Under the pieces are notes generated by a model. It saw only the letters and a list, made by a program, of their open reading frames with translations, was not told the origin of the DNA and did not search any database. Positions 33,005 to 34,025 of a stretch of 38,184 nt of DNA are shown piece after piece (within the stretch, counting starts at the first letter, position 1; each line of letters starts with the position of its first letter). Position numbers and translations under genes: made by a program. The stretch is from a virus (Duplodnaviria; Heunggongvirae; Uroviricota; Caudoviricetes): IMG/VR virus record IMGVR_UViG_2531839529_000007; one strand, 5' to 3'.

Positions 33005-33038
33005 CCGCAGGCTCGTCGTATGCAAGATCGTGCTGCGG
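33005..33038. terminator. Bidirectional hairpin terminator between pin and the convergent nuclease-domain gene (repeat copy A)
   Basis: CCGCAGGCTCG / CGTGCTGCGG imperfect stem with 13-nt loop; T-rich on both sides; first of three related hairpin copies. Confidence 0.5.
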
Positions 33039-33060
33039 TTTATGCTTATCACTTAAAGAC

Positions 33061-33834
33061 TCAAAAATTAGGTGAGTAACGGACCGGGGACATAGCTCCT
33101 TTTTTTCTTAATTCATCTGGTATTTTTTTTCCAAGATAAAGATTTGCTATTTTAGGTGGGGCTTCTCGACCTTCAAAACCATAGCGAGAACTTTGTGTTG
33201 CCTCAAAGTCAGGATCTTCGTCCCAGTATTTCATCGTAGGGAAATTTTCACGTGTTGATTTGAGCCATTTATCAGCAATGAAAACTCCTCGAACGATCCC
33301 CCTTACAGTAGCAAGAATGACTTCTGCTTGGCTGGCGCGAGAGACATTAATGCGCCAGCTAAATCGAACCGCATCATAAAGCTCTGAATCCTTTGCACTT
33401 CTGTTAACGGAAATCATTAATGCTTTATGATGAAATGTTATGGTTTCGGGTTGATATGTTGCTATCAACTCTTTGACATGCGCGGCGCCGAATTCATTGC
33501 TGCCAGCACCATTCATGATATTCGTTAACCCAGGGTAGGCATCAATAAGTGCTGCTTCAACTTCGTACGCCGTCTTTTCATCAGTCATTCCGTGTCGATG
33601 GATGACATGGATAACCTCAAGTCCTGCTAACCTTATTTCTCTAATTTGCTTTAGCTTGTTGCTCAGTAACTCGTCATCATCAGTCGCTGCCACTTCACCG
33701 CGCATATGGGCAAATACGCGGTTACCTTTGCCTTTCCCTACATAGAAGGTGCTTCCGTCCCTCGGATCAATCAATCGGTATACATACCAGCCAAGGTGTT
33801 CAATTACTCCAGAAGGAAACTCAGTAATATCCAT
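33061..33834 (-). CDS. GIY-YIG / T5orf172-like nuclease-domain protein, unknown function
   Basis: 257 aa from the ATG at 33834 (the track's 274-aa ORF starts at a TTG); N-terminal motif [33 protein letters not shown]-terminal region unrecognised; lower GC than the tail genes; sits directly after pin. Confidence 0.7.
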
Positions 33835-34025
33835 TTTGCAATATCTATGAATTATTTGTGAGACGTATATTAATGAACATTGCAAGGGCTCACAACCAGT
33901 AGTGTTGAGAAAACTATCGGGTAAATGAGGCTAATCCTTTGAATTTACATAGTAAAAAAAGATACTTTTCCTCATAGTGTGAGCTAATTTTATGTTTCGT
34001 TTGATGATCGGACCGGTCTCAAAAA

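Follow-up and report, generated by a model that had tools for sequence, protein, structure and literature searches.

A prophage cargo gene assigned to the CMoRE (PD-T4-3) family of modification-dependent nucleases in the slot behind the pinE invertase

Results

The host prophage and the region behind pin

The window, that is, the whole stretch of 38,184 nt analysed here (IMG/VR record IMGVR_UViG_2531839529_000007), opens with proA (ORF 1-1254), followed by a tRNA-Thr(CGU) gene at 1369-1444, a tyrosine integrase gene at 1459-2622 and then a complete structural gene set. Since the first ORF is proA and the tRNA is Thr(CGU), the integration site is thrW, the site used by SfV/SfII/P22-type phages; the same two genes rule out integration at icd, as in e14. 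Between 12000 and 33000, ~82-84% of the sequence matches Shigella phages SfII and SfI and Escherichia phage vB_EcoM-689R6 at ~97% identity, and the structural genes are ~97% like those of SfII, SfI, SfIV and SfV. The structural match to SfII and SfI, together with the thrW site, identifies the host element as an SfV/SfII-like prophage. A repeat of the thrW 3' end of at least 11 nt, sought as attR, was not found in the window, and therefore the island runs past 38184. The baseplate genes have a GC content of ~57%, which drops to 35-45% once 33000 is passed (~40-45% in the region carrying the cargo gene described below). Cargo at this end is classical: in phage Mu, gin is followed by com-mom, and in phages of the SfV family the gtr genes for serotype conversion lie between tail fibres and attP.

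The features on which the following account relies are these.

32448-33002, plus strand: pinE-type serine DNA invertase, 184 aa (Pfam Resolvase and HTH_7), 96% identical to e14 PinE
33002-33038, no strand assigned: hairpin A, a probable two-way terminator for pin (plus) and CMoRE (minus) and the left junction of the CMoRE cassette
33061-33834, minus strand: CMoRE/PD-T4-3 coding sequence, 257 aa plus stop, from the ORF and from PADLOC, PHROG and PDB matches
33064-33477, minus strand: C-terminal modification-sensing domain, approximately aa 120-257 including Y127 (boundary approximate)
33505-33834, minus strand: N-terminal GIY-YIG nuclease part, from Pfam PF22945 on aa 28-110 and a residue check
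33670-33681, minus strand: acidic autoinhibitory loop D52-D53-D54-E55, four consecutive acidic residues (function from PMC12923530)
33835-34022, minus strand: upstream non-coding region of 188 nt, presumed promoter, from the sequence
34023-34120, no strand assigned: element B, a hairpin at 34023-34059 with a 61-nt extension, the right junction of the CMoRE cassette
36692-36789, no strand assigned: element C, a third copy, 82% identical to B, with its hairpin at 36692-36728

Just upstream of pin, at 32368-32393, lies the 26-bp site TTCTCCCAAACCAACCTTTTAGAAAA, which we take to resemble the hix/gix/pix crossover sites. This pix-like site bounds the invertible tail-fibre segment on the right, with alternative tail-fibre and assembly genes at 30274-31347 (plus) and 31319-32376 (minus). 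The hairpin as the Pin crossover site is ruled out, a pix-like site being present at 32368-32393; the outer arms of the hairpin (GATAA...TTATC) are, too, the other way round from those of hix/gix sites (TTATC...GATAA).

Several further genes lie to the right of element B. A minus-strand operon at 34223-35439 comprises a capH-like HTH gene (35062-35439), a capP-like M78/ImmA-IrrE peptidase gene (34525-35058), tiny ORFs of 49 and 47 aa (34389-34538 and 34256-34399) and a terminator at 34223-34241, and a Bro-N domain gene (35746-36507, plus) is divergent from it. CapH/CapP-type pairs regulate defence operons elsewhere. At the far right, a plus-strand gene of very low GC content (35-38%) at 37138-38184 encodes an S1/trypsin-like serine peptidase with no known domain in its N-terminal ~130 aa. 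Its weak PADLOC matches are to protease domains (those of RT-Protease_XI, LmuA and HamA), and it may be a further defence-type cargo gene.

Reading frame and family identity of the cargo gene

The ORF convergent with pin spans 33061-33885 on the minus strand, its stop codon lying at 33061-33063, 58 nt from that of pin. An upstream TTG at 33885 would give 274 aa, and an ATG at 33834 gives the 257-aa protein; the same 774-nt CDS is found in the RefSeq annotation of near-identical genomes, and the residue numbering of the crystal structures matches the ATG start. The 257-aa frame on the opposite strand directly after pin, as given in the preliminary description, is thus confirmed.

That description had considered no named system assignable from the sequence. 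The gene nevertheless belongs to a named and crystallised one, CMoRE/PD-T4-3. The PADLOC profile PDLC04031 (PD-T4-3) is matched end to end (E 7e-140, 463 bits), with residues 1-256 on positions 1-255 of the 256 of the profile, and PHROG 5356 at E 3e-143. Among proteins of solved structure, CMoRE of E. coli O157:H7 (PDB 9U75/9U8D) is identical at 252 of 257 positions (98.1%; E 1e-171) and that of E. coli APEC O1 (9U7U/9U7Z) at 218 of 257 (84.8%; E 4e-150). The five differences from the O157:H7 protein (T51A, E55D, Q169K, N197H and K228E) all fall outside the residues tested in PMC12923530. No NCBIfam model matches the protein, and RefSeq names the family only "LEM-3-like GIY-YIG domain-containing protein".

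The domain picture agrees with this assignment. An N-terminus of GIY-YIG or T5orf172 type had been proposed, and a profile search bears out the former part: the GIY-YIG clan model PF22945 (LEM-3_GIY-YIG) covers aa 28-110 with 54.2 bits against a cut-off of 27, the classical GIY-YIG model PF01541 stays below its threshold (14 bits versus 22.6), and T5orf172 gives no match in the Pfam scan at E<=1, which leaves the T5orf172-like label unsupported. The YVYRL stretch occupies residues 17-21, and a further motif stretch, F-Y31-V-G-K-G-K-G-N-R39-V-F-A-H, residues 30-43, so that the tyrosines of the "GIYxY-YIG" motif lie in W16-Y17-V18-Y19 and F30-Y31-V32-G33. Y17, Y19, Y31, R39, R80, V92, L96 and Y127 are all present, as is the acidic loop, which reads DDDE in the window protein and in APEC O1 CMoRE and DDDD in O157:H7 CMoRE. 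No HNH domain was matched in Pfam or PADLOC. The C-terminal half is covered by no Pfam model, and its earlier characterisation as unrecognised was fair as far as profile libraries go; it has since been solved as the modification-sensing domain, and only three of its residues differ from 9U75 (Q169K, N197H and K228E).

Because the functional residues and the acidic loop are all present, the gene is filed as an orthologue of CMoRE, first named PD-T4-3, an assignment that we regard, from sequence comparison, as almost certain. It is, in other words, an already known and structurally solved single-gene defence system. The earlier suggestion of single-gene anti-phage or restriction-like cargo gains corresponding support from the match at 98% identity. 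Flanked by hairpins A and B and converging on pin, the gene forms a monocistronic unit, and its right-hand neighbours differ in strains SS17 and A30, so it has no obligate partner gene.

The slot behind pinE

In K-12 MG1655, mcrA comes immediately after pinE, and the end of e14 is next. The tail/pin module of the window is orthologous to that of e14 (PinE 96% and YmfQ 98% identical), and hence the slot of the window truly is the mcrA slot of e14, as had been proposed in the preliminary description. The content of this slot varies among E. coli strains. It holds mcrA in K-12 e14 (locus L002, 6686-8180); strain 104 (locus L009, 3298-5363) has an "empty" slot, in which pinE is followed by one full copy of the hairpin element, a dinI-like gene, int and dusA; and in strain 3359 (locus L010, 4183-5871) the hairpin is followed by a gene for a 562-aa ATP-dependent nuclease with PADLOC matches of OLD/AriA/NsnB type. 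The characterised O157:H7 gene occupies the same pinE-adjacent position as the window gene. As other strains have the slot empty or filled with an OLD/AriA-like nuclease, the slot after pinE is a hotspot of defence cargo.

A prophage-end element at both cassette junctions

Hairpins A and B, each of 37 nt and each folding as a 12-13-bp stem, are 89% identical, with no match in 100 shuffles (0 expected). Two such copies bracketing the gene had been noticed before, and they are real; a third copy, C, and the extension that makes B and C a longer shared repeat of 98 nt had been missed, copy A consisting of the 37-nt hairpin only. On the minus strand, hairpin A (-18.6 kcal/mol) is followed by UUUCAUUUAU and hairpin B by UUUUU.

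The hairpins are not peculiar to the cargo gene. They belong to a generic prophage-end terminator element: 5408 of the 5426 complete E. coli genomes contain matches to a 126-nt stretch around B, with a median of three sites each, almost always unannotated. Hairpin A also follows pinE in strains 104, 3359, A30 and SS17. The placement at prophage ends holds for the loci inspected, where the element lies beside a dinI-like gene and an integrase gene at dusA (loci L003 and L009), beside a dinI-like gene at ssrA in O157:H7 (L004) and, without annotation, at the ydfJ end of Qin in K-12 (L005 and L008). Most often the element forms the 3' tail of a dinI-like gene; it is absent from e14. On the minus strand it starts ~4 nt past the stop codon of the dinI-like gene and ends with a 13-bp hairpin and a U-run, and on these grounds it reads as a 3'-UTR with an intrinsic terminator. 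A first, imperfect hairpin (GGCUGG...CCAGCC) appears only when copy B is folded singly; the consensus fold lacks it. The terminal hairpin is conserved as sequence, and its minimal covariation (one compensatory pair in nine copies) neither proves nor disproves the structure. No Rfam family was found for the hairpins at E<=1, the one relevant match, next to copy C, being to the final 17 nt of tmRNA.

Both ends of the CMoRE cassette (33039-34022) coincide exactly with the bases of the two hairpin copies. Other alleles cease to be homologous at precisely these bases or, in O157:H7, within the hairpin, and homology to other genomes ends at the edges of element B. When a synthetic "deleted" allele, in which pin was joined to the sequence right of B, was used as a query, no genome covered at least 80% of this exact empty site; the same search returned many genomes with pin, then one full element and then different DNA.

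Beside copy C, positions 36671-36698 (minus) repeat exactly, in inverted orientation, the 28 nt that end E. coli ssrA, with its T-arm, acceptor strand and CCA. This ssrA 3' end is fused to the left of element C at a GCGG microhomology, which makes the region right of pin a mosaic; although the locus is thrW, the fragment and copy C together look like what is left of an att junction from a prophage that integrated at ssrA.

Upstream region, distribution and homologues

The 188 nt between the start codon and element B yielded no consensus sigma-70 site scoring at least 9/12 on the minus strand, the best promoter candidate by eye being a weak TTGTGA-17-TAATAT, and no clear Shine-Dalgarno sequence or strong ribosome-binding site was seen upstream of the gene. 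According to PMC12923530, the native promoter gives activity to the O157:H7 allele but only weak activity to the APEC O1 allele. Since native-promoter clones of the O157:H7 allele are active, a promoter of its own is presumed in 33835-34022; the strength of expression of the window allele is uncertain because no consensus promoter or ribosome-binding site is present and the APEC O1 allele is weak. The whole 984-nt segment (gene plus upstream region) is 95.9% identical in O157:H7 SS17, and by analogy with this lineage, expression from the upstream region and activity of the window allele would be expected.

At 90% identity or more, this segment is present in 853 of 5426 complete E. coli genomes (844 of 858 records at 95% or more), which places CMoRE in ~16% of them, and the whole arrangement of pin, CMoRE and element B recurs in 554 genomes. 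In O157:H7 SS17, from the lineage of the crystallised protein, CMoRE stands behind pinE in a degraded prophage, and in strain A30 a pinE-CMoRE stub is all that is left, beside tRNA-Phe. A megablast search of the gene against INPHARED phages returned nothing, and tblastn found full-length homologues in jumbo phages (38-45% identity, 97-99% coverage). These homologues occur in virulent jumbo phages, e.g., Serratia phage Moabite (6406-7161) and Pseudomonas phage OBP (158703-159449), and carry annotations that vary between endonuclease and homing nuclease. It is conceivable that they serve such phages against competitors with modified DNA.

Discussion

What the assignment implies for the window gene

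PD-T4-3 goes back to a functional selection (Vassallo et al. 2022, PMC9519451) with a GIY-YIG nuclease among its hits; the source strain of PD-T4-3 was ECOR68 according to PMC12923530, the study of Liu et al. 2026 in which PD-T4-3 was renamed CMoRE. There, T2, T4 and T6 plated about five logs less efficiently on cells with CMoRE, T4(C) escaped, and non-glucosylated T4(hmC) was restricted (PMC12923530). The enzyme binds and cleaves DNA containing 5hmC or 5ghmC and not DNA containing C or 5mC, requires two modified sites and cuts in the pattern CN11/N9G, leaving 2-nt 3' overhangs (PMC12923530). Mutation of any of Y17, Y19 and Y31 of the "GIYxY-YIG" motif abolishes activity, and the V92S/L96S mutant of the tetramer loses both oligomerisation and defence (PMC12923530). 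A lid of four acidic residues between helices alpha2 and alpha3 lies over the active site, and 5hm-dCTP is bound in the C-terminal domain of 9U8D and 9U7Z, touching the main chain of Y127; the authors found no homologue of this domain by sequence or structure (PMC12923530). Two independent studies are in agreement: in one, deletion of PD-T4-3 in the clinical isolate NILS69 increased the infectivity of Tevenvirinae, and in the other, a 48%-identical homologue from Capnocytophaga was modification-dependent and at high dose also cut Mom-modified Mu DNA.

Transferred from the 98%-identical characterised protein, the mechanism of the window enzyme would be as follows. The protein would form a dimer-of-dimers tetramer in which each C-terminal domain binds a 5-hydroxymethyl- or glucosyl-hydroxymethyl-cytosine, one dimer thus reading two modified cytosines ~21 bp apart. 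The GIY-YIG domains, with Y17, Y19 and Y31, the catalytic Arg and Glu, and Mg2+ or Mn2+, would then cut between the modified cytosines, with the CN11/N9G geometry and its 2-nt 3' overhangs, and the acidic loop DDDE 52-55 over the active site would exclude unmodified host DNA. A lysogen would be predicted, because of the mechanism of this near-identical CMoRE, to degrade incoming T-even-type DNA directly and to survive, with no abortive infection. Both the dependence of cleavage on 5hmC/5ghmC and the restriction of T-even phages by the window allele are thus expected by analogy with proteins of 98% and 85% identity.

Weighing other readings of the gene

The reading that comes closest to competing with an active CMoRE is that of an intact gene that is effectively silent or inactive, a decaying passenger giving its host no phenotype. 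It could draw on the poor promoter and Shine-Dalgarno signals, on the weak activity of the APEC O1 allele from its native promoter (PMC12923530) and on a cargo region that is a mosaic with orphan prophage-end elements and an ssrA fragment. However, the ORF is not truncated and keeps every tested residue, the gene and its upstream region are strongly conserved across those 853 of 5426 complete E. coli genomes, the O157:H7 allele works from its native promoter (PMC12923530), and the chromosomal copy of NILS69 gives a deletion phenotype. We therefore consider silence improbable for the window gene.

Considerably less credible still is a free-standing GIY-YIG homing endonuclease, i.e., a selfish phage nuclease rather than a defence gene, to which we give almost no weight. 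A weak match to PHROG 314 ("homing endonuclease", E 0.0015) and the "putative homing nuclease" label that the jumbo-phage homologues of 38-45% identity sometimes carry point in this direction. The full-length match, however, is to PD-T4-3/CMoRE and not to homing enzymes, and the Pfam scan of the protein revealed no NUMOD or IENR-type DNA-binding modules. The gene, moreover, neither interrupts nor adjoins a conserved target gene but lies among the non-essential cargo that separates pin from the prophage end, and the 98%-identical protein is modification-specific with little sequence specificity, its restriction depending on modification and involving no sequence-specific cleavage of a cognate empty allele (PMC12923530). 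Homology to a homing endonuclease embedded in a structural gene, named in the preliminary description as what would speak against a defence role, was looked for and is not what the gene presents.

A role in abortive infection, in which the GIY-YIG nuclease would act as a toxin on the infected cell instead of selectively attacking phage DNA, can be dismissed as extremely improbable: the 4A mutant, which has lost the acidic loop, does cut ordinary DNA and is toxic, but that loop is intact in the window protein, cells with wild-type CMoRE grow normally at MOI >1 with no abortive infection (survival at high MOI being documented for the O157:H7 and ECOR68 alleles), and host DNA reads stay unchanged while T4 reads are depleted (PMC12923530). 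The preferred reading thus remains a CMoRE orthologue that would act on modified phage DNA.

The hairpin element and a possible exchange of cargo

On the simplest reading, the hairpin of the repeated element is a terminator for both genes, CMoRE (minus strand) and pin (plus strand), and the repeated element offers homologous stretches through which cargo can be exchanged by recombination. It is tempting to go further and to hypothesize that the hairpin and its ~100-nt element have a role beyond termination and could be a junction for swaps of defence cargo in the pinE-adjacent slot of SfV/e14-type and lambdoid prophages, an idea that we put forward only tentatively and that is rather unlikely as it stands. 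A cassette bounded at the hairpins, the "empty" allele, the OLD/AriA-like nuclease behind a hairpin and the breaks of synteny at or inside the element all support it. If it were true, two further hairpin-bounded segments, one with the capH/capP-like pair, its two tiny ORFs and the Bro-N gene, and the other with the S1 peptidase, would become candidate new cargo.

Comparison with known systems

The window gene can be given a name, CMoRE/PD-T4-3, and a class, type IV enzymes specific for 5hmC and 5ghmC; this is mainly a matter of annotation, with the prediction, by analogy, that the lysogen would resist T-even-type phages. Its closest counterpart, O157:H7 CMoRE (9U75, 9U8D), has the same length and two-domain architecture and is likewise convergent with pinE, with hairpin A between the two genes, but it lies in a degraded prophage remnant, in which the right-hand hairpin element is reduced to its first 9 nt. 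APEC O1 CMoRE (9U7U, 9U7Z) has the DDDE loop of the window protein and should, judging from the alignment, share its fold and tetramer, whereas 39 substitutions, mostly in the C-terminal domain, separate the two, and the APEC allele gives weak defence when expressed from its own promoter.

McrA, an HNH nuclease, acts on 5mC/5hmC sites. McrA (EcoKMcrA) of e14 resembles CMoRE in occupying the slot right after pinE and in being, by annotation, a single-protein type IV modification-dependent nuclease; the two have no sequence relationship, and the resemblance is functional and positional only. CMoRE has the GIY-YIG fold and ignores 5mC (PMC12923530). The genes also differ in setting: mcrA is co-oriented with pinE in a prophage lacking the hairpin element, whereas CMoRE is convergent with it and accompanied by hairpins. 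Across strains, the pinE slot may thus contain either of two unrelated modification-dependent nucleases (McrA or CMoRE), an OLD/AriA-like nuclease, or nothing. Enzymes of the PvuRts1I/AbaSI family cut at a fixed distance between two modified cytosines. PvuRts1I is like CMoRE in its specific recognition of 5hmC and 5ghmC (PMC12923530), but both the nuclease fold and the sensor domain of PvuRts1I/AbaSI-type enzymes are unrelated to those of CMoRE, the latter point according to the authors of PMC12923530.
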